A stretch of DNA of 64,000 nt from an uncultured Candidatus Saccharibacteria bacterium (lineage in GTDB: Bacteria; Patescibacteriota; Minisyncoccia; Phycocordibacterales; JABMNX01), in the NCBI GenBank assembly GCA_964575755.1, contig CAZNRH010000004.1, positions 699-64,698 on the forward strand, read 5' to 3'. The translations under genes and the position numbers were made by a program. Shown here one piece after another: positions 1,730 through 51,725 of this stretch. The notes beneath the pieces were generated by a model that was given only the letters and a program-made list of their open reading frames with translations, was not told the DNA's origin and ran no database searches. How positions within the stretch are numbered: the first letter of the stretch is position 1; each line of letters begins with the position of its first letter.

Positions 1730-1981
1730 TCAATGTCGGTCTCTGGACACGATTCCTTGAGAGGAATCGTCTTTTTTCTTTGAAAAATAGTATATGTAAA
1801 ATATTTCAAGAATACCTACGGTGTTTACTATAAGAAGCGCAATAAACCACCACTTGTCTCTGAGTTGTGCTGACTTCCAAAGGGCAAACCCTTTCCACAT
1901 TGTTGTCCATATAATGATTAATAAGACGGCAAAGAGTAATATAATACCGTGTTCGTTTGCAAATAATTCTAATTTGTTCAT
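1730..1981 (-). CDS. Small 2-TM membrane protein
   Basis: 83-aa ORF with two hydrophobic helices. The start codon sits exactly at the end of the CATCCCGTTAGAG inverted-repeat element. Confidence 0.45.
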   Translation of the reverse strand: MNKLELFANEHGIILLFAVLLIIIWTTMWKGFALWKSAQLRDKWWFIALLIVNTVGILEIFYIYYFSKKKDDSSQGIVSRDRH

Positions 1982-2114
1982 CCCGTTAGAGTTAGGACAC
2001 TGATATAGACAATCTTTGTCCTAAAATTAAACTTTTTGTTAAAAATCGACTTTATTCCCCATATATTGTTTCAGTGTCCGACAGTCGTCCATGAACGACT
2101 TATCTCTAACGGGA
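1981..2114. repeat. MITE-like or leader hairpin element with terminal inverted repeats TCCCGTTAGAG / CTCTAACGGGA
   Basis: 11-bp perfect inverted termini at 1981-1991 and 2104-2114, plus an internal hairpin 'aggacactgatatagacaatctttgtcct'. The same termini occur at 41372-41491. Confidence 0.6.
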
Positions 2115-2151
2115 TTCATATACACAGTATACTACTTCTAAACAAAACTGT

Positions 2152-2212
2152 GGGCTACCTCGTGCTGGAACTGTGGGATTCCTTGCCCTGTAAGATTATT
2201 TCACTCTTTTTT
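2152..2212. repeat. Conserved intergenic motif 'GGGCTACCTCGTG...CTGTAAGrTTATTT' (copy 1 of 3)
   Basis: Near-identical 13-mer also at 2823-2832 and 3478-3490, each downstream of a consecutive minus-strand gene. Confidence 0.55.
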
Positions 2213-2251
2213 TGAATATAAATCGAAGGTTCCTCGTGCAAGAATATAAAA

Positions 2252-2719
2252 TCATAAATCTTTTCTCATCTCTATTCTATAATTATAAAAACCAAATTTT
2301 CTCCAAGCCTTAATCCCTATCTTATTTCTTGCGTCTACGCTAAGCTCAATATGTTTGATTTTTTTCTCTTTAAACCATTCTAGTAGCTCATTGAGTAATT
2401 TTTCTCCAATTTTCTTATACCTATAATCTTCTTTAATAAAGGTATCATCAATATTCCCAATCTTTTCAGGCATAATATATGAAGAGGCCTCTAATACTAC
2501 ACCAACAATACGCCCAATGACCTTTCCGTCACCCTCAGCTACAAGCATTCTTACATTCTTATCTTTTAACTGATCTTTCGTGTATTTATCTAATCCTTTG
2601 TATTTAGAAAAGGGTTTGTAATATTTATCTATCTTGTAATGATAATCTGTTACATCTTCAATTAATTCCATTATTTCGTTTAGATCTTTATTTGTAGCTT
2701 TTCTTATGGTGATTTTCAT
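2252..2719 (-). CDS. GNAT-family N-acetyltransferase
   Basis: 155 aa; acetyl-CoA-binding-type segment 'RMLVAEGDGKVIGRIVGVV' and C-terminal 'GIKAWRKFGF'; AGGA Shine-Dalgarno before the ATG. Confidence 0.7.
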   Translation of the reverse strand: MKITIRKATNKDLNEIMELIEDVTDYHYKIDKYYKPFSKYKGLDKYTKDQLKDKNVRMLVAEGDGKVIGRIVGVVLEASSYIMPEKIGNIDDTFIKEDYRYKKIGEKLLNELLEWFKEKKIKHIELSVDARNKIGIKAWRKFGFYNYRIEMRKDL

Positions 2720-2799
2720 ATCCTAATTCTAACGCAGTTAGCAAATTCGCATAGCAAAGTTGTTTACAAGTTACTTCAAGCACACTAAGAAACTATTTT

Positions 2800-2880
2800 C
2801 CTCGTGCTAGCATGATGTGGCAGGCTACCTCGGGGTTGGAACCATAGTCGGTCAACCTCTGTAAGGTTATTTTACTATTT
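2800..2880. repeat. Conserved intergenic motif (copy 2): 'CAGGCTACCTCGG...CTCTGTAAGGTTATTTTACT'
   Basis: Shares the GGCTACCTCG core and the CTGTAAG-TTATTT tail with copies at 2152 and 3478. Confidence 0.55.
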
Positions 2881-2913
2881 TTTCTAATATAAATTTAAGG
2901 TTTTAACAGCTCT

Positions 2914-3462
2914 TTATTCTTCTTTGAATTTAAGCCTTGGCCACTTCTCAAACCACTCTTTCTTTTTTGCTCTTTCTTTAACTAAATCTAATCCTCCTGG
3001 AAATTTAGGGCTTGGTCTTACAACTAAATTAGTTAAATCATCTATTCCGTGTGGAGCTACAAGAGTTAATTTGCCATTTCTTAACCTGACTCCTATACCA
3101 GTGGCTGTCTCTGGCCATCGAGAAATAGCATCCCTCATTGATTTATAAGGAGGTAAATTATTCCATTTGTGAGCATATACTTCATTGACTATTTCCCAAT
3201 CGAAACCCGTCTGGTTACTAAGTTTTTGTGATAATTTTTTGTCGGTTTTCTGATTGGTTTCTTTGGGGTCATAATAAACCAAATCGATATCATTTGTGTC
3301 AACTTTTAAATTTGAATATCCGTGTAAATAATCCCACACTTTATTTCTTATAAATCCACCGCCTATAACCCAATTAGGAAAATTTAGATCTTCTGCAATT
3401 TGCAAGACTTTCATCATCCACTCATCTTTTTTTATTAAATTTAAAATGTCTTGTTCATTCAT
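2914..3462 (-). CDS. Nucleotidyltransferase-family protein (DUF925 / NTP_transf_6-like)
   Basis: 182 aa with 'GGGFIRNKVWDYLHG...DIDLVYYD', pattern typical of minimal nucleotidyltransferases. Confidence 0.55.
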   Translation of the reverse strand: MNEQDILNLIKKDEWMMKVLQIAEDLNFPNWVIGGGFIRNKVWDYLHGYSNLKVDTNDIDLVYYDPKETNQKTDKKLSQKLSNQTGFDWEIVNEVYAHKWNNLPPYKSMRDAISRWPETATGIGVRLRNGKLTLVAPHGIDDLTNLVVRPSPKFPGGLDLVKERAKKKEWFEKWPRLKFKEE

Positions 3463-3477
3463 GTTTTTATACGTTGC

Positions 3478-3545
3478 GGGCTACCTCGTGTGTTCAGACC
3501 GTGGTCGTTAAGGTCAGCAAGGTTCGTTTCAAGCTTTTTAGAATA
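3478..3545. repeat. Conserved intergenic motif (copy 3): 'GCGGGCTACCTCGTGTG...GTTAAGGTCAGCAAGG'
   Basis: Third copy of the GGGCTACCTCGTG 13-mer. Confidence 0.55.
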
Positions 3546-3615
3546 TCATTTCAACGTACCTTGGGCGCCTTATATTTTTTTAAAAAGTTACAAAAGTGAA
3601 ATTTGGGTTATTAGA

Positions 3616-4410
3616 TTACAATTTCTCAATTCTAACTGCATTAAAGGCTCTTAGGATATCTTCTTTTAAGGTTGGAGTATAATCTTTGGTTTCGTTTCCT
3701 TTATCGTCCGAAAGTGCAGTTCCGTTCCCATATAGAACAACATACGTGTTTTTTCCAAGACTAACAACTGCTATGTATCCTCGTAATGTGATAGTTTCAT
3801 ATTCTGTATGTATATCAGTTGGTATAAGGTTGGTATATTTAATATTAAGAGTTGGATTGGATATGTTTAACAGAATAGCAGCACCTTTCATAAGTCGTCT
3901 ACATAGAGAGTTATTGCTTTTGCTACCAACATCACTATGAGATAGGCCACCAGAGAAATCATAAAGTGTGCCTTGGTATCCGTTGATTTGTATCTGTTTG
4001 GAGGACATAATATTTCCTGTAGGCATTTCTATACATGGATTCGGATCGCCAAAATCATACAACCAATTTTTCTGGTCAGCTACAGCTAGACTGAAATGAT
4101 CTTGGAGCGTAAATTCTCTATTCTCTTTAAATTTTACAAGATACGCTCCTAGCCAAGATTGATATTGTTTTGCATTACGATCGTAACGGGAGGAAACACC
4201 GTTTTTGTCTCTTGCCCCCATAGTCCAATGGTTGACTCCCCAAGTCCTAATGCCATGTTTAGCCCAAGAAGGTCCCATATTGAATCTAACTAACCCATTG
4301 ATCCAAGTGTTAGGGATGTTTGTAAATTCAACACGATATCCAATCTTTCTCTCGAGTAGTCGAATATACCAAGAATACATATAACCAATGAATTGTAGAA
4401 TGTTTTTCAT
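3616..4410 (-). CDS. Hypothetical protein; likely start is the internal ATG (MKNILQF...)
   Basis: The long ORF begins at a TTG. The conserved upstream block 'TTTGCTATaCaAATTT..TGCGTTAGAA' that is shared with the GNAT gene sits immediately before the internal ATG at 4410. Confidence 0.5.
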   Translation of the reverse strand: MKNILQFIGYMYSWYIRLLERKIGYRVEFTNIPNTWINGLVRFNMGPSWAKHGIRTWGVNHWTMGARDKNGVSSRYDRNAKQYQSWLGAYLVKFKENREFTLQDHFSLAVADQKNWLYDFGDPNPCIEMPTGNIMSSKQIQINGYQGTLYDFSGGLSHSDVGSKSNNSLCRRLMKGAAILLNISNPTLNIKYTNLIPTDIHTEYETITLRGYIAVVSLGKNTYVVLYGNGTALSDDKGNETKDYTPTLKEDILRAFNAVRIEKL

Positions 4411-4496
4411 ACTTTCTAACGCAACCACTAAATTTGTATAGCAAATTACCTGCAAGCTACTTCAAGCGCCTGAGACCTCATGCCAGCTCTAAGATG

Positions 4497-40830: not shown

Positions 40831-41361
40831 ATGACAGAAGTGGAAAAGACAGAAAACATAATAAATGAAGTAGATATTGATATGGACGGGGATATTGATC
40901 CGCGTGTATATGAATTGGGGTACAGTATTATTCCAGCTGTTTCAGAAGAAGAAGCACCAAAAGAGGCTTTGGCTATTAAGGATTTTATTAAGGAGCACGG
41001 CGGTACTGTTATATCAGAAGAAGTTCCAAAACATATCGACCTTGCATATGACATGTTCAGAACTGAAAAGGGAAAGAAAGAAAAGTTTGAGACAGCATAC
41101 TTTGGTGGGATTAAGTTTGAGATGGCGCCATCTGGAGTTATTGAGGTTAAAAACGTTCTTGATATAAACAAAAATATCCTTCGACACATTATCTTTAATA
41201 CAGTGAAAGAAAGTACTCGTTCGGAAATGAGGCTTCCTCAAGTGAGAACTGAACGAAAACATAATGTTGCGCCAAAAACAACTCCTAAAAAAGAAGAATT
41301 AGGCGTTAAGGTATCTGAAAAGGCTCTTGATGAAAGTATTAAAGAGATTGTGGTAGAATAA
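40831..41361 (+). CDS. rpsF: Ribosomal protein S6 (with C-terminal extension)
   Basis: 'YELGYSIIPAVSEEEAPKEALAIKDFIKEHGG' S6-like; gene order rpsF-ssb-rpsR. Confidence 0.75.
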   Translation: MTEVEKTENIINEVDIDMDGDIDPRVYELGYSIIPAVSEEEAPKEALAIKDFIKEHGGTVISEEVPKHIDLAYDMFRTEKGKKEKFETAYFGGIKFEMAPSGVIEVKNVLDINKNILRHIIFNTVKESTRSEMRLPQVRTERKHNVAPKTTPKKEELGVKVSEKALDESIKEIVVE

Positions 41362-41371
41362 ATCTATATGT

Positions 41372-41491
41372 ATCCCGTTAGAGACCGCGGTCACGTAGGA
41401 TATAATCAAAAATATGAAAATGAGTCGAAAACAAATTTATAAGACAATAATCAGACAAGTTCGCACGACCGCGACCTGTCTCTAATGGGAT
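41372..41491. repeat. Second copy of the TCCCGTTAGAG inverted-repeat element; its 3' arm ends in the ssb start codon
   Basis: 'atcccgttagagaccgcggtc ... gaccgcgacctgtctctaatgggATG'. Confidence 0.6.
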
Positions 41492-41939
41492 GTATTTAAA
41501 CAAAGCTCTTATTATTGGAAATCTGACACGTGACCCTGAGTTGCGTTCACTCCCGTCTGGAATACAGGTAACTAGCTTTAGTGTTGCTACCAACCGTGTT
41601 TGGAAAGATAAAGACGGACAGAAGCAAGAAGCTGTTGAGTATCATAATATTGTGGTATTTGGACGACAAGCAGAGACAAGTGCACAGTACCTAAAGAAAG
41701 GAAGCTCTGTTTTAATTGAAGGGCGACTTCAGACACGAAGCTGGGATGCAGACGGAGTTAAGAAATATCGAACAGAGATAGTTGCTGATAGAGTACAGTT
41801 TGGCTCACGAAACAGTGGTGACACTGGAGGTGGTAATACTACTCCAAAGGCAGATGAAGGTGCTAAACCAACAGAGACAAAAGTGGATGCAATAGAATAT
41901 CCAGAAGAAGATATTAACCCAGACGATATACCATTTTAA
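41490..41939 (+). CDS. ssb: Single-stranded DNA-binding protein
   Basis: 'LNKALIIGNLTRDPELR' OB-fold start and C-terminal acidic tip 'DDIPF'. Confidence 0.95.
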   Translation: MYLNKALIIGNLTRDPELRSLPSGIQVTSFSVATNRVWKDKDGQKQEAVEYHNIVVFGRQAETSAQYLKKGSSVLIEGRLQTRSWDADGVKKYRTEIVADRVQFGSRNSGDTGGGNTTPKADEGAKPTETKVDAIEYPEEDINPDDIPF

Positions 41940-41949
41940 TTTAATTACT

Positions 41950-42150
41950 ATGAACACAGACTTTTTTTCAACACATAATATAAAACATATCGACTATCGA
42001 GATATTGATATCTTAAAGCAGTTTTTGAATCCACACGGACGTATTCTTGCACGTAAGAAGACTAACCTAACCGCGAAGCATCAACGCAGAATGGAAGAGG
42101 CTGTAAAGCGCGCTCGTTTTATGGGATTACTTCCTTTTGTATCTAAATAA
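41950..42150 (+). CDS. rpsR: Ribosomal protein S18
   Basis: 'KHIDYRDIDILKQFL...RKKTNLTAKHQRRMEEAVKRARFMGLLPF'. Confidence 0.95.
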   Translation: MNTDFFSTHNIKHIDYRDIDILKQFLNPHGRILARKKTNLTAKHQRRMEEAVKRARFMGLLPFVSK

Positions 42151-49373: not shown

Positions 49374-51725
49374 TTACTTAACAACGCCTTTGGGCGCGAT
49401 TTCTTCTGAGGAATCGTCGTCATCTTCATATAATTCTTCCTCTTCAGATGGGAGTTCGTCACCTGTCCCGTTAGAAGTAGACTCGTCAGAGTCGTCAGTT
49501 CTAACGGGATCGGTTTCGTCAACGTCGTCTCCGGACGTGATTTCTTCTGAGAAATCATCGTGGTCGTCAAGAACCTCACGTGGTTTTGAGCCGTTTGCTG
49601 GGCCTATTACTCCTCTGTCTTCAAGCATATCCATTAAGCGTGCTGCACGAGCATAACCTACACGCAACTTTCGTTGTAGGTATGATGTTGAGGCTTTTCC
49701 TGCTTCGATAATTACGCGATATGCGTCGTCGTACAGAGCATCTTCTTGCTCATCTTGATCATCGAGAGTTGCGGAGAACATGGCAGGGTCTCCACTGGTT
49801 TCAGTGAAATCTATTTCACTTGGTAATTCATTTTCGTAACTCTTAATCAAGAACGAAGACACTTTCTTTAATTCTGTTTCTGTTATAAATGGAGATTGTA
49901 TTCGTAGTGGTTTAGACATTTCTCCTGAAAGGAAGAGCATATCTCCTGCACCAAGAAGCTTCTCTGCACCTCCTGTGTCGAGAATGGTTCGTGAGTCTAT
50001 CTGCGAAGATACTTGTAAGGCGATGCGTGTTGGTATGTTGGCTTTAATAAGTCCTGTAATAACCTGCACTGAAGGCCTTTGTGTTGAAAGTATTAAATGA
50101 ATTCCTACTGCACGACTCATTTGTGCAAGACGTACTATGGCACTCTCGAGCTCTCGTGGATATGCTTGCATTATGTCTGCAAGCTCGTCGATAATAAGTA
50201 CAATATACGGCATTGGTTCTGGTACCTCGTCTTCTGGCAAGTCTTTGTCGACTGATGGCGCGACTATGTTCTTGTGATAAGAAGATATGTCTCGCACTGA
50301 GGCTTCTTCTAATATGTCGTAGCGCCTATCCATCTCATTTGCGAGCCATTTGAGGGCTAAGATAGTCTTCTTAGCATTAGTTATTACAGGAGTGAGTAGG
50401 TGTGGAATGTTTTTGTATAGAGTTAATTCGACACGTTTTGGATCAACTAAGATAAGTCGCATGTCTTGTGGTGACTTGCGGTAGATAAGTGACATAACTA
50501 CATTGTGAATCATGACTGATTTACCTGATCCAGTTGCTCCGGCAATAAGAAGGTGAGGCATCTTCGCTAAATCATAGAAATGTGAGTTACCGACAATGTC
50601 GCGGCCGAGACCTATGAGCAGTGACTTATCTGAGTTCTGGTACTCATCATTTGCTAATAGGGAAGCGAGTCCTACCATAGCTTTAGACTTGTTTGGTATT
50701 TCAATGCCAACGAGTGACTTGCCTGGTATTGGTGCTTCTATGCGTACTGGATATGCTGCGAGTGCGAGCTCTAGATTGTTTTGAAGTGTGAGAATTTTAG
50801 AAAGTCTAACTCCTTCGGCTGGTTTGAGTGTGTAGCGAGTTACTGTCGGACCGATAGAAACTTCATCCATCTCTACTTGTATGCCAAAGTTTTGTAGCGT
50901 GCGTTTTATGATGTTGGCATTTGCTTTTACGTCTCCCACGTCTGGCTTTCCTTTATCCTTTTCAAGTAGTGACAGGGGAGGGGGAGTGTACTCTCCAAAC
51001 GATGCATATGTATTTATTTTAGGATCTTTTTTGCCGAAACCGAGTAGACCTTTTAATCCACCAGCGCCTTCTTCTTCGTCTTCAGTTTCTTCTTCGTCGT
51101 ATTCCTCCTCCTCTGCATCTTCATCGCCTCCGGGCGCGATTTCTTGCGAGAAATCGTCATCTTCTTCGTACGCTTCTTCCTCGGCGTCATCCTCGTAGTA
51201 TTTCTCCTCTTCAGTATCTTTTCGTTTGAAGACATTCAAGAATGAAAAACTTGGCAGGAAGTCGAACATAATAACAAGAGACAATATAATAAGCACAACG
51301 AGCATAAGTACAGATGCATATACATCGAGTAATGCAACAATAGGGGACGATACGAAACCTCCTATTATTCCAGCACTTCCTTTAAATGCTATATCTATAA
51401 TTCCTAAACTTGAGAGTATAAATACTCCTGCGCTCACGTTCTTTAGTGTGCCGTATGCATGTTCGTATGAACGAAAGAATGAAATTGCTATGAAAAATAG
51501 AACGATAGGTAATAAGAAGTATCCAACACCAAAGAGAGTGGAGAGACTGTTGAATGTAGCTCGCCCTGCTATACCTGCGATATTAAATGCGGACAGTATA
51601 AAAAAGAGTGTGATAAATAGGAATACGATACCCCAAATACCACGTACAGTTTCTTCTTTCAGGTCTTCAAATATGTTACTAATTGCAAGATCTTTTTTAT
51701 TTCCTTTTTTCTTTTTTTTAGCCAT
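49374..51725 (-). CDS. ftsK: DNA translocase FtsK/SpoIIIE
   Basis: N-terminal TM segments, acidic linker, motor domain 'LIAGATGSGKSVMIHNVVMSL', gamma domain '...STSYLQRKLRVGYARAARLMDMLE', then an extra acidic C-terminal tail. Confidence 0.92.
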   Translation of the reverse strand: MAKKKKKGNKKDLAISNIFEDLKEETVRGIWGIVFLFITLFFILSAFNIAGIAGRATFNSLSTLFGVGYFLLPIVLFFIAISFFRSYEHAYGTLKNVSAGVFILSSLGIIDIAFKGSAGIIGGFVSSPIVALLDVYASVLMLVVLIILSLVIMFDFLPSFSFLNVFKRKDTEEEKYYEDDAEEEAYEEDDDFSQEIAPGGDEDAEEEEYDEEETEDEEEGAGGLKGLLGFGKKDPKINTYASFGEYTPPPLSLLEKDKGKPDVGDVKANANIIKRTLQNFGIQVEMDEVSIGPTVTRYTLKPAEGVRLSKILTLQNNLELALAAYPVRIEAPIPGKSLVGIEIPNKSKAMVGLASLLANDEYQNSDKSLLIGLGRDIVGNSHFYDLAKMPHLLIAGATGSGKSVMIHNVVMSLIYRKSPQDMRLILVDPKRVELTLYKNIPHLLTPVITNAKKTILALKWLANEMDRRYDILEEASVRDISSYHKNIVAPSVDKDLPEDEVPEPMPYIVLIIDELADIMQAYPRELESAIVRLAQMSRAVGIHLILSTQRPSVQVITGLIKANIPTRIALQVSSQIDSRTILDTGGAEKLLGAGDMLFLSGEMSKPLRIQSPFITETELKKVSSFLIKSYENELPSEIDFTETSGDPAMFSATLDDQDEQEDALYDDAYRVIIEAGKASTSYLQRKLRVGYARAARLMDMLEDRGVIGPANGSKPREVLDDHDDFSEEITSGDDVDETDPVRTDDSDESTSNGTGDELPSEEEELYEDDDDSSEEIAPKGVVK

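Follow-up and report, generated by a model that had tools for sequence, protein, structure and literature searches.

A MITE-like insertion element that occupies start codons is widespread in Patescibacteria/CPR

Two hairpin-forming elements, E1 and E2, are located in the window (the whole 64,000-nt stretch of DNA that was analysed), each directly in front of a gene (Table 1). E1 precedes the minus-strand gene of a small membrane protein with a DUF5652 domain, and E2 lies between rpsF and ssb, with rpsR following. A terminator-like site was seen at 2236-2224, after the GNAT gene upstream of E1; none overlaps E1 or E2 themselves. An intrinsic terminator, with a GC-rich stem followed by a U run, was rejected as an identity for the hairpins, as the stem instead runs into AUGRA and coding sequence. 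E1 and E2 point the same way with respect to their own genes and share the arms TCCCGTTAGAG / CTCTAAYGGGA, found at 1981-1991 and 2104-2114 in E1 and at 41373-41383 and 41480-41490 in E2. The original prediction had described two hairpin elements with matching inverted ends, and they are present as it placed them apart from a shift of one base at each edge. With up to one mismatch allowed, the arm sequence TCCCRTTAGAG occurs eight times in the window against 1.48 expected, a count reached in none of 100 shuffles. Six of these eight matches form three inverted pairs, the third of which, at 49466/49499, had not been noticed before and constitutes a mini copy within ftsK. The acidic tail of ftsK in which it lies is not conserved, homologues carrying other acidic tails, and mini hairpins like this one occur in other genomes, as does the GAA/TTC arm variant. 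When folded as RNA, E1 (-50.6 kcal/mol, z = -4.7) and E2 (-40.3 kcal/mol, z = -3.9) are both predicted to use the arms as a closing stem, and for each of them 0 of 200 shuffles were as stable. The A and U of the start AUG are paired in these models, in line with the occlusion of the AUG by a long-range stem that had been proposed.

Table 1. Features of E1, E2 and the mini copy, with the surrounding genes, in window coordinates.
Feature	Position	Strand	Description and basis
DUF5652 (PF18893) small membrane protein gene	1730..1981	-	ORF; identical 83-aa protein on record with PF18893
E1 downstream ATGAA	1977..1981	-	True DUF5652 start codon + 2 nt
E1 P1 3' strand	1980..1991	-	CUCUAACGGGAU; takes in A + U of start codon; fold
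E1 element proper	1982..2114	-	133 nt; sense strand TCCCGTTAGAG ... CTCTAACGGG; sequence, pattern match, fold
E1 P2 3' strand	1995..2003	-	UCAGUGUCC; then UAA, then 3' arm; fold
E1 uORF	2039..2119	-	26 codons + stop, opened by upstream ATG copy; translation
E1 P2 5' strand	2071..2079	-	GGACACUGA; fold
E1 P1 5' strand	2104..2115	-	AUCCCGUUAGAG; 12-bp closing stem in MFE and centroid folds
E1 upstream target copy ATGAA	2115..2119	-	Opens uORF MNPVRDKSF...; direct sequence reading
-10-like TATACT	2126..2131	-	6 nt 5' of E1 upstream ATG copy; leaderless-type promoter; sequence reading
rpsF (ribosomal protein S6)	40831..41361	+	ORF; Pfam match on L001 orthologue
-10-like TAGAAT (TG-extended)	41354..41359	+	rpsF end, 8 nt 5' of E2 upstream ATG copy
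E2 upstream target copy ATGTA	41368..41372	+	6 nt past rpsF stop codon
E2 uORF	41368..41442	+	24 codons + stop, MYPVRDRGHVGYNQKYENESKTNL then stop; translation
E2 P1 5' strand	41372..41385	+	14 nt; fold; family covariation at stem positions 9-11
E2 element proper	41373..41489	+	117 nt; sequence, pattern match, fold
E2 P2 5' strand	41386..41392	+	CGCGGUC; fold
E2 P2 3' strand + bulge	41467..41477	+	GACCGCG 41467-41473; asymmetric bulge ACCU 41474-41477 with conserved CC-U
E2 P1 3' strand	41478..41491	+	14 nt, CTCTAATGGGA; A + U of ssb AUG, one G.U pair
E2 downstream ATGTA	41490..41494	+	True ssb start codon + 2 nt
ssb	41490..41939	+	ORF, orthologue comparison
rpsR (ribosomal protein S18)	41950..42150	+	ORF, orthologue comparison
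Mini copy	49466..49509	.	Arms TCCCGTTAGAA / TTCTAACGGGA, 22-nt loop; in frame in ftsK acidic C-terminal tail

Each element sits between 5-nt direct repeats consisting of the start codon and two further bases, ATGAA for E1 and ATGTA for E2; the preceding copy of each repeat (2115-2119 on the minus strand and 41368-41372) was missing from the original prediction. The comparison with relatives for presence or absence that had been proposed found both window sites unoccupied and single-copy in the syntenic relative GCA_964625905.1 (~82% DNA identity). The ssb site of this relative reads rpsF-TAA-ATAT-ATGTATTTAAAC (ssb), a spacer of 4 nt with no element, and its -10-like TAGAAT is 6 nt upstream of the ssb ATG. 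E2 is missing between rpsF and ssb in the loci L001 and L125, where both flanks are syntenic, and the BLAST blocks to L001 break at E2 with an overlap of 6 nt (L001 10001-10006, ATGTAT) that corresponds to both 41368-41373 and 41490-41495. A second contig with an empty rpsF-ssb site comes from the window's own metagenome. At E1, synteny with the relative was found on the gene side only; the BLAST alignment of the DUF5652 gene starts exactly at 1981, and the relative's orthologue (L122) reads TATAAT-N6-ATGAAC with no element, in a layout that matches that of E1 and recurs genome-wide. The terminal GGGATG had been thought to supply the start codon of the adjacent gene. The start codons of ssb (41490) and of the DUF5652 gene (1981, minus strand) do lie within it, but they are not donated by the element: the ATG is the gene's own, already present in the empty site, and on insertion it is duplicated along with the two bases that follow.

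These empty sites bear on the proposal that E2 is a gene-specific leader through which ssb, or the S6-SSB-S18 operon, regulates itself, and that its likeness to the DUF5652 leader is coincidental. In favor of this, E2 separates rpsF from ssb and base-pairs with the start AUG of ssb. Against it, the closest relative has no element at that junction, the same element stands before more than 100 unrelated genes, and the flanking 5-nt duplication is the mark of an insertion. We find the leader explanation hardly credible. The alternative that had been raised, a MITE, agrees with the empty sites at both genes and with more than 130 further copies beside unrelated genes elsewhere: E1 and E2 belong to a family of insertion elements, MITE-like and specific for start codons, that occurs widely in Patescibacteria/CPR, and are not an ssb leader.

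A scan of 185,579 species genomes recovered at least 120 stretches holding 132 copies among the matches listed, almost all in Patescibacteria MAGs. Most of the copies listed are 117-123 nt long (range 100-137 nt), with terminal inverted repeats of 11-14 bp, TCCCGTTAGAG(RY) / (RY)CTCTAACGGGA, and a single MAG may hold several copies, tandem and nested ones included. The conservation of the arms is partly a selection effect because the search demanded exact arms; second copies within the same loci are mostly intact too. The interiors are mostly unrelated, 119 copies falling into 95 clusters, which is unusual for MITEs and argues that the arms are kept by selection and not by youth alone. The genes behind the copies listed fall into 103 clusters and include typA, lepA, rplQ, rplI, frr, murG, murC, adk and pheT along with ~100 others. 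Among the copies listed, the 5-mers on the two sides match exactly in 76 of 86 cases, against a mean of 37 and a maximum of 51 in 20,000 permutations. A duplication of only 2 bp next to perfect 12-bp repeats was ruled out because the fifth base covaries between both flanking copies (ATGAG/ATGAG in 7 of 10). The element integrates via a 5-bp staggered cut and so comes to stand between two copies of ATGNN.

The element has no conserved coding capacity, the uORFs within it ranging from 6 to 42 codons with conservation limited to the arm-encoded MNPVR[DG]. A conserved internal promoter is likewise unsupported, with 94 -10-like hexamers on the antisense and 87 on the sense strand; E2 alone has a good internal promoter-like TAGAGA-16-TATAAT. 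A promoter in the 3' arm that starts transcription at the AUG was rejected, as CTCTAACGGG holds no usable -10 box at the right spacing. The 0.95 Mb of flanking DNA yielded neither an autonomous element nor a transposase carrying these arms, and viral contigs contained neither a copy of the element nor a long arm-bounded element. Unpaired arms and long arm-to-arm distances, looked for in all loci, led back to degraded, tandem or nested copies only. The element was not described in the literature that we searched on CPR/Patescibacteria start codons, hairpins, MITEs, the arm sequence and leaderless Parcubacteria.

Across the family, the element consists of a 14-bp terminal stem of nearly fixed sequence, P1, enclosing an AT-rich interior, and a second stem, P2, with one bulged U beside the 3' arm. 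At each P1 position from -1 to 11, Watson-Crick pairs form in at least 92% of copies, while position -2 is so paired in 77% and forms G.U in a further 17%; compensatory changes are found at positions 9-11. In P2, 44 sequences show 6-19 double changes per pair and close to no broken pairs, and the P2 of E1 ends in CC beside the 3' arm in agreement with the family consensus. Selection on P1 at the level of RNA is unproven because its mismatches are symmetric (16 G.U against 14 A.C) and the sense RNA is just 1.2 kcal/mol more stable than the antisense (p = 0.012).

Among the copies listed, an ATG adjoins 123 of 132; whether copies always abut start codons had been proposed as a check. Of the 119 ATGs that could be oriented in this set, 94% lead into ORFs of 50 aa or more (median 231 aa), and in most of ten proteins tested a Pfam domain (GTP_EFTU, L9_N, Glyco_transf_28 and others) starts at residues 1-3. 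Unoccupied ATGRR sites number 355 at gene starts and 789-1374 in non-coding DNA, from which ~20-30% of copies would be expected at start codons; ~90% are observed there. Orientation relative to the gene is sense in 83 of the copies listed and reversed in 4. CPR copies with intact arms are almost always located exactly on an authentic start codon and in sense orientation.

Another reading of the element is a mobile translational-control module under positive selection, in which a conserved trans-acting factor (RNA-binding protein, helicase, RNase or sRNA) would act on the invariant arms or the P2-U junction to open or cut the hairpin, so that many housekeeping genes would be co-regulated at initiation. 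The arm sequence is near-invariant, beyond what pairing requires, across many CPR classes while the interiors are unrelated, and the asymmetric conserved junction A-C-G[P2]C-U together with the 83:4 sense bias points to a strand-specific function. Genes with a role in growth are among those whose AUG is occupied (typA, lepA, rplQ, rplI, frr, ssb, adk, pheT, murC, murG). A decoy resembling the 3' arm (ACGGGA and the like), which could compete for the 5' arm, is present in ~18% of interiors (21 against 9.9 expected), and words resembling the 5' arm are depleted there. However, occupancy is not conserved, the closest relative being empty at the same gene, and across genomes the same gene has been struck by unrelated copies, once in the opposite orientation. 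By our estimate, gene families recur about as often as the ATGRR constraint predicts, with no enrichment of target genes beyond it, and the invariance of the arms owes something to the exact-arm search noted above. We consider a control module unlikely.

The genes around the copies suggest how their hosts begin translation. SD-like 4-mers precede only 11% of gene starts, and the position of the -10 box peaks at -7/-8. A -10 box of the leaderless type is present at 57 of 119 occupied sites, against 24% of all gene starts. Among 114 upstream ATG copies, 92 have a leaderless-spaced -10 box, the end of an upstream ORF within 40 nt (13 of these as ATGA overlaps), or both, and 41 (36%) are operon-internal with no -10 box. 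Hosts appear to initiate on leaderless mRNAs, whose -10 box precedes the ATG by 6-8 nt, or to restart at stop/start junctions.

The roughly two-fold enrichment of -10 boxes at leaderless spacing would also fit a mechanistic targeting of start sites, in which, for instance, an open complex of RNA polymerase at a leaderless promoter would guide integration, or an RNA intermediate would be joined to the 5' ends of mRNAs, and selection after loose ATNNA targeting would not be the cause. The nucleotide-exact placement in fixed orientation, at a 2.5- to 4-fold excess over the tolerated-site prediction, agrees with this explanation, as do repeated independent strikes on the same start codons and the tandem copies. 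The operon-internal junctions without a -10 box weaken pure transcription-start targeting, however, and apart from ATGRA no sequence signal emerges from the 25 nt upstream of copies. Outside CPR, MAG copies are flanked by ATTTA, ATAAA and ATCAA as 5-nt repeats and are not at start codons, so that the basic mechanism seems to need only an AT-rich pentamer. We give mechanistic targeting a slim chance.

Duplication of the target would leave the upstream ATGNN copy in the native context for initiation, and ribosomes would therefore start there. From this position they may translate a junk uORF (M-N-P-V-R-...), melting P1 on the way, halt inside the element, often at a UAA that the 3' arm supplies 4 nt ahead of the gene's AUG, and re-initiate on the gene. 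Insertion at a start codon would then do almost no damage, whereas in genomes this dense an insertion at most other sites would be lethal or soon deleted. The uORF frames, counted after removal of related copies, are consistent with such a relay. For 36 of 72 copies (p = 0.0025) the ATG-to-ATG distance equals 1 mod 3; of these 36, 18 have a uORF that runs open as far as the UAA of the arm, where the baseline is 11% (p = 8e-9). In the in-frame class it is open in 0 of 18. These sequence statistics suggest that the junk uORF often reads through the hairpin to the 3'-arm UAA just before the true AUG. The relay to this UAA is not universal, since ~3/4 of uORFs end early, those of E1 and E2 at codons 27 and 25. 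The orientation bias of 83:4 is not explained by the uORF model alone because both arms share one sequence. With a probability of about 60%, we favor the reading that the family is a ~115-135 nt non-coding, palindromic-ended MITE-like element on start codons that is made tolerable by a uORF relay.

The hairpin might instead be removed from the RNA, by self-cleavage or by a host RNase (e.g. RNase III on the ~22-bp P1+P2 stack) near GGG|AUG, leaving a leaderless or short-leader mRNA in which the insertion is silent like an intron. At the approximately half of occupied sites with a leaderless-type -10 box, the transcript would begin directly with the element. The strict sense orientation and the conserved structured junction beside the 3' end are compatible with removal, as is the 3' strand of P1 and P2, which is continuous over ~22 nt in both architectural types, and essential genes bear the element despite the paired AUG. 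Yet Rfam 15 returned nothing at gathering score in the window and only chance-level matches at E <= 10 on E1 and E2, with no ribozyme or other family match, and there are very few invariant unpaired nucleotides to make up a catalytic core. A 5'-terminal AUG is not native to the 41 of 114 operon-internal sites, and the frame and stop-codon bias of the uORFs is not predicted by removal, which we judge to be rather improbable. A small but appreciable chance remains with a new class of selfish element that has the translation start as its niche, homes to start codons by more than DNA sequence, through initiation complexes or an RNA intermediate, and is kept silent in SD-less leaderless translators through an RNA-level trick (relay or shunt from the duplicated AUG, or precise leader removal), functionally a "start-codon intron".

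Several known repeats share features with this element. The Correia elements (CREE) of Neisseria and the ERIC/IRU elements of enterobacteria are MITEs co-transcribed with genes, and Correia hairpins are RNase III substrates that can alter expression. Both resemble the present element in their size of 100-150 bp, TIRs, short duplication, non-coding nature, location beside genes and long hairpin in the mRNA. They differ in duplicating TA instead of 5 nt (ATGNN) and in being genus-wide where this family is phylum-wide; moreover, ~90% of copies here are exactly on start codons and ~95% are in sense, interiors are unrelated between copies, and there is no conserved internal promoter. The Rickettsia palindromic elements (RPE) are 100-150 bp palindromic repeats of reduced genomes, tolerated where gene function survives, and the ftsK mini copy is read in frame as they are. 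RPEs lie inside ORFs, however, and are translated as an extra peptide, whereas full-size copies here precede the ORF, hold stops and are flanked by the duplicated start codon. REP/REPIN sequences are short conserved palindromes that also form ~100-nt hairpin doublets and mini hairpins; they are mobilised by RAYT transposases, and the mobilising gene need not be inside the element. We rejected this identity, as REP/REPIN insert without duplicating their target and are found for the most part downstream of genes or where two genes converge, in contrast to the 5-nt duplication and adjoining ATG found here.

Integron attC sites (57-141 nt) have inverted ends with GTT/AAC, a variable unrelated centre, extrahelical bases and a location just 5' of ORFs, and their extrahelical bases make recombination strand- and orientation-specific. 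They were rejected because the order of the boxes is reversed (GTTAGAG...CTCTAAC here, RYYYAAC...GTTRRRY in attC) with a misfit at the first and last box positions, and the genes here are core operon genes, not cassettes. No integrase was seen among the called genes around ssb in L001, and exchange by a tyrosine recombinase misfits because the flanking 5-nt duplications vary by site. For targeting only, an analogy is offered by Ty3 of yeast, a eukaryotic LTR retroelement guided by TFIIIB to the Pol III transcription start, which integrates within 1-2 nt of the start site and duplicates 5 bp of its target; by contrast, one in three sites here is not a predicted transcription start. For expression only, termination-reinitiation through a hairpin, shunting on the CaMV 35S leader and the T4 gene 60 bypass are analogous in that a short uORF lies before or runs into a stable stem with the true start at its 3' foot, and gene 60 has matched sequences on both sides of the skipped segment as well. 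In none of these systems does the arrangement arise from a mobile element that has duplicated a start codon.

If this reading is correct, a phylum-wide mobile element has its place on start codons, and essential genes (frr, pheT, murC, adk, ssb) are not spared, which raises the question of how cells still translate genes behind the hairpin. CPR/Patescibacteria have almost no Shine-Dalgarno sites and are scarcely accessible to genetics, and each copy would be a natural experiment on their translation initiation. The duplicated AUG, the hairpin and the built-in UAA lead to concrete predictions on leaderless initiation, restart after a uORF and RNA processing. For annotation, "intergenic" gaps of ~120 nt and mis-called starts in CPR MAGs may be copies of the element. 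The exact, orientation-specific placement could indicate a new targeting mechanism, and the family would show a route by which selfish DNA persists in extremely streamlined genomes.

Both elements with inverted termini described in the original prediction, one (E1) in front of a DUF5652 gene and the other (E2) in front of ssb, were present in the window sequence as stated. A search for the arm motif TCCCRTTAGAG with at most one mismatch returned eight matches in the window where 1.48 were expected, a number reached in none of 100 shuffles. Three inverted pairs account for six of the eight: 1981/2104 (E1), 41373/41480 (E2) and an overlooked short one at 49466/49499. Read toward the adjacent gene, E1 and E2 have an identical arrangement, ATGAA-TCCCGTTAGAG ... 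CTCTAACGGG-ATGAAC and ATGTA-TCCCGTTAGAG ... CTCTAATGGG-ATGTAT, respectively. As ATGNN stands on each side of both elements, it forms a 5-nt direct repeat, and the ATG adjoining the element belongs to its second copy. The arms were also expected to pair on the mRNA, and in the predicted folds they form the closing stem of both elements (z = -4.7 for E1 and -3.9 for E2 against dinucleotide shuffles).

By its SSB homologues the window belongs to Patescibacteria (Parcubacteria/Paceibacterota). Of the genomes on record, GCA_964625905.1 is the nearest, with synteny around ssb at ~82% DNA identity. Its rpsF-ssb gap is 4 nt (GGTAGAATAAATATATGTATTTAAAC), and the BLAST blocks between it and the window are interrupted at E2 and overlap on ATGTAT, which corresponds to both 41368-41373 and 41490-41495, as is characteristic of a target-site duplication. 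The window's own metagenome assembly also contains another contig in which this site is empty. The relative's orthologous DUF5652 gene likewise lacks the element (TATAAT-TCTTAT-ATGAACCAATTAGAA); its annotated start is 7 codons too early, at an upstream ATG within the TATAAT region. Synteny at E1 holds on the gene side only and ends immediately upstream of the element. In the relative, tRNA-Ser directly precedes the DUF5652 gene, whereas in the window ~2.4 kb encoding a 279-aa ORF, NTP_transf_6 and a GNAT acetyltransferase lie between them, placing E1 at a rearrangement boundary. Both sites are thus unoccupied in the relative and the elements are insertions, which refutes the alternative that they represent a leader specific to ssb.

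One genome per species was scanned with TCCCRTTAGAG-N(89-119)-CTCTAAYGGGA. At least 120 stretches with paired arms were recovered, and all but five of those listed came from MAGs labelled Patescibacteria, Parcubacteria classes, Saccharibacteria or unclassified "bacterium". Together with the window these give at least 132 copies, mostly 117-123 nt, and among the matches listed 123 of the 132 adjoin an ATG at one end. Searching the same loci with a profile yielded further copies: some with the GAA/TTC arm variant, a compensatory change, others as mini hairpins of 29-50 nt, and others in tandem or nested, the last two arrangements suggesting repeated insertion at the same targets. The third window pair is a mini copy of this kind, read in frame within ftsK as DPVRTDDSDESTSNGTG; comparable mini hairpins are present in L069 and, nested within another copy, in L095. 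It lies in the acidic C-terminal tail of FtsK, which is not common to FtsK homologues. The acidic segments of this protein are alike in the N-terminal linker (DDFSQEIAPGG) and at the C-terminus (DDSSEEIAPKG).

Positions of the elements, related copies and gene starts discussed in the text
Feature	Position	Remark
E1	window 1982-2114	minus strand
E2	window 41373-41489	plus strand
G.U variant of E2 3' arm (CTCTAATGGG)	window 41484-41498	
Promoter-like sequence in E2	window 41379-41406	TAGAGA-16-TATAAT, 10/12 matches
Mini copy (TCCCGTTAGAA ... TTCTAACGGGA)	window 49466-49509	44 nt; inside ftsK (49374-51725, minus strand)
Example starts with TATAAT-like box, no Shine-Dalgarno site	window 5123, 5906, 14328, 21428, 25318, 27477, 32457, 57695	
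Adjoining or overlapping operon genes	window 7705/7708, 8247/8252, 22108/22110, 38500, 39852/39856	
Break in synteny upstream of E1	L122 2780-3018	window 2120-4495
DUF5652 gene of relative	L122 3001-3273 (annotated)	orthologous start 3019
Tandem copies sharing one ATGAA, copy nested in P2 loop, 201-nt copy with internal insertion	L031 5472-5711, L006 5898-6279, L100 962-1200, L095 408-586, L037 853-1053	
ACTTG in place of 5'-side ATGAA	L011 3556, L034 2835, L093 6421, L095 1283, L109 6667	four independent
Same gene, unrelated interiors: typA	L005 2393, L052 4710	one copy in the rare reversed orientation
lepA	L108, L119	
rplQ	L013, L021, L027	
rplI	L036, L066, L083	
frr	L033, L035, L091	
Copies in non-CPR-labelled MAGs	L030 1170-1281, L043 5515-5651, L121 4211-4335, L100 962-1200	

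Among the matches listed, 119 copies could be oriented by the adjoining ATG, and 94% of these ATGs begin ORFs of 50 aa or more (median 231 aa, although many are cut by locus ends). The proteins downstream of the listed copies fall into 103 unrelated clusters. Ten were tested (TypA, LepA, L17, L9, RRF, MurG, MurC, Adk, PheT and PriA), and in most of them Pfam domains begin at residues 1-3, indicating that the ATG is the native N-terminus. In the 86 listed cases whose upstream flank reads ATG, the flanking 5-mers were identical in 76 (permutation mean 37, maximum 51), most frequently ATGAA (50), ATGGA (15), ATGAG (7) and ATGTA (3). A 2-bp duplication within longer repeats was excluded by covariation of the fifth base. 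In the same loci, 355 unoccupied ATGRR pentamers lie at gene starts, 789-1374 in non-coding DNA and ~6400 within genes; if intragenic insertions alone were purged, ~20-30% of copies would be expected at starts, versus the ~90% observed. Five genes are occupied in more than one genome by copies whose interiors are unrelated, which suggests separate hits on the same start codon. In five copies ACTTG replaces the 5'-side ATGAA; in the RNA, P1, the terminal stem formed by the arms, would grow across the UGA of AUGA via G.U pairs. In MAGs labelled WOR-3, Omnitrophota and Bdellovibrionales the copies contain internal mini hairpins and are flanked by 5-nt repeats of ATTTA, ATAAA or ATCAA, so the basic insertion mechanism seems to require no more than an AT-rich pentamer; the first A was fixed by the scan pattern. 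Neither of the two that were placed sits on a start codon (L121, 118 nt from the next start; L043, 5 nt upstream of one).

P1 comprises 14 bp and extends into the real AUG, whose A and U it includes. Among listed copies it is Watson-Crick paired in at least 92% at each of positions -1 to 11 and in 77% at position -2 (plus 17% G.U), with compensatory changes at positions 9-11. The 3' end carries an asymmetric conserved CC-U-RY before the arm. The CC closes a local hairpin (P2, conserved motif A-C-G[P2]C-U) in 78 of 119 copies, and in the remainder, E2 among them, pairs with GG beside the 5' arm. RNAalifold on 44 copies recovered P1 and P2, each P2 pair showing 6-19 double changes and almost none broken. 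By the 3'-end asymmetry, 83 listed copies lie in the sense orientation relative to the gene and 4 are reversed. Interiors are AT-rich and mostly unrelated (119 copies in 95 similarity clusters), with no conserved internal promoter among listed copies. The promoter-like sequence in E2, whose -35 part is formed by the 5' arm, is no general trait of the family; it would yield an ssb transcript lacking the 5' arm, its AUG therefore free. Through its G.U variant, the 3' arm of E2 also gains a further AUG, out of frame and 5 nt ahead of that of ssb, opening the 4-codon AUGGGAUGUAUUUAA. Support for an action of the fold at the RNA instead of the DNA level is weak: sense RNA exceeds antisense in stability by 1.2 kcal/mol (p = 0.012), and P1 mismatches show no asymmetry.

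Scarce Shine-Dalgarno sites, a -10 box at -7/-8 and abutting genes are characteristic of genomes that use leaderless mRNAs and translational restart at stop/start junctions. No Shine-Dalgarno sites were found for the window genes, operon genes there adjoin or overlap, and in many cases a TAnnnT (TATAAT-like) box stands 6-8 nt ahead of the ATG, suggestive of leaderless mRNAs. A Shine-Dalgarno-like word precedes only 11% of gene starts across the loci, where -10 boxes peak at -7/-8. Of the 114 listed upstream copies of ATGNN, 51 are preceded by a -10 box at leaderless spacing, 63 lie within 40 nt of the end of an upstream ORF (ATGA overlaps in thirteen and TAATG in four), and 92 fall into at least one of these two groups. 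In the window, the upstream copy of E1 follows TATACT-N6 and that of E2 follows TAGAAT-N8, six nt after the rpsF stop. We infer that the upstream copy preserves the native initiation context; ribosomes should therefore start there and would read M-N/D/S/Y-P-V-R-... into the element. With related copies removed, the ATG-ATG distance is 1 mod 3 in 36 of 72 (p = 0.0025), a frame that brings this upstream ORF (uORF) to a stop at the UAA of the 3' arm (CUC UAA CGGG AUG). No earlier stop interrupts it in 18 of these 36, where the baseline is 11% (p = 8e-9); the peptides are not conserved, and 0 of 18 in-frame uORFs are open. This pattern fits a relay in which translation would melt P1 and end beside the true AUG. 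The relay to the arm UAA holds for about a quarter of copies, neither E1 nor E2 among them, and it leaves the orientation bias unexplained.

No matching family was found in Rfam, no copy in viral contigs and no description in the full-text searches of the literature. That E1 and E2 belong to a MITE-like family of insertion elements generating a 5-nt duplication is well supported, as is the placement of this family in CPR genomes on authentic start codons in sense orientation. Set against known MITEs (Correia, ERIC), Rickettsia palindromic elements, REPINs and attC sites, its exact start-codon placement, fixed orientation, invariant arms around unrelated interiors and phylum-wide spread appear, as far as could be found, to be novel.
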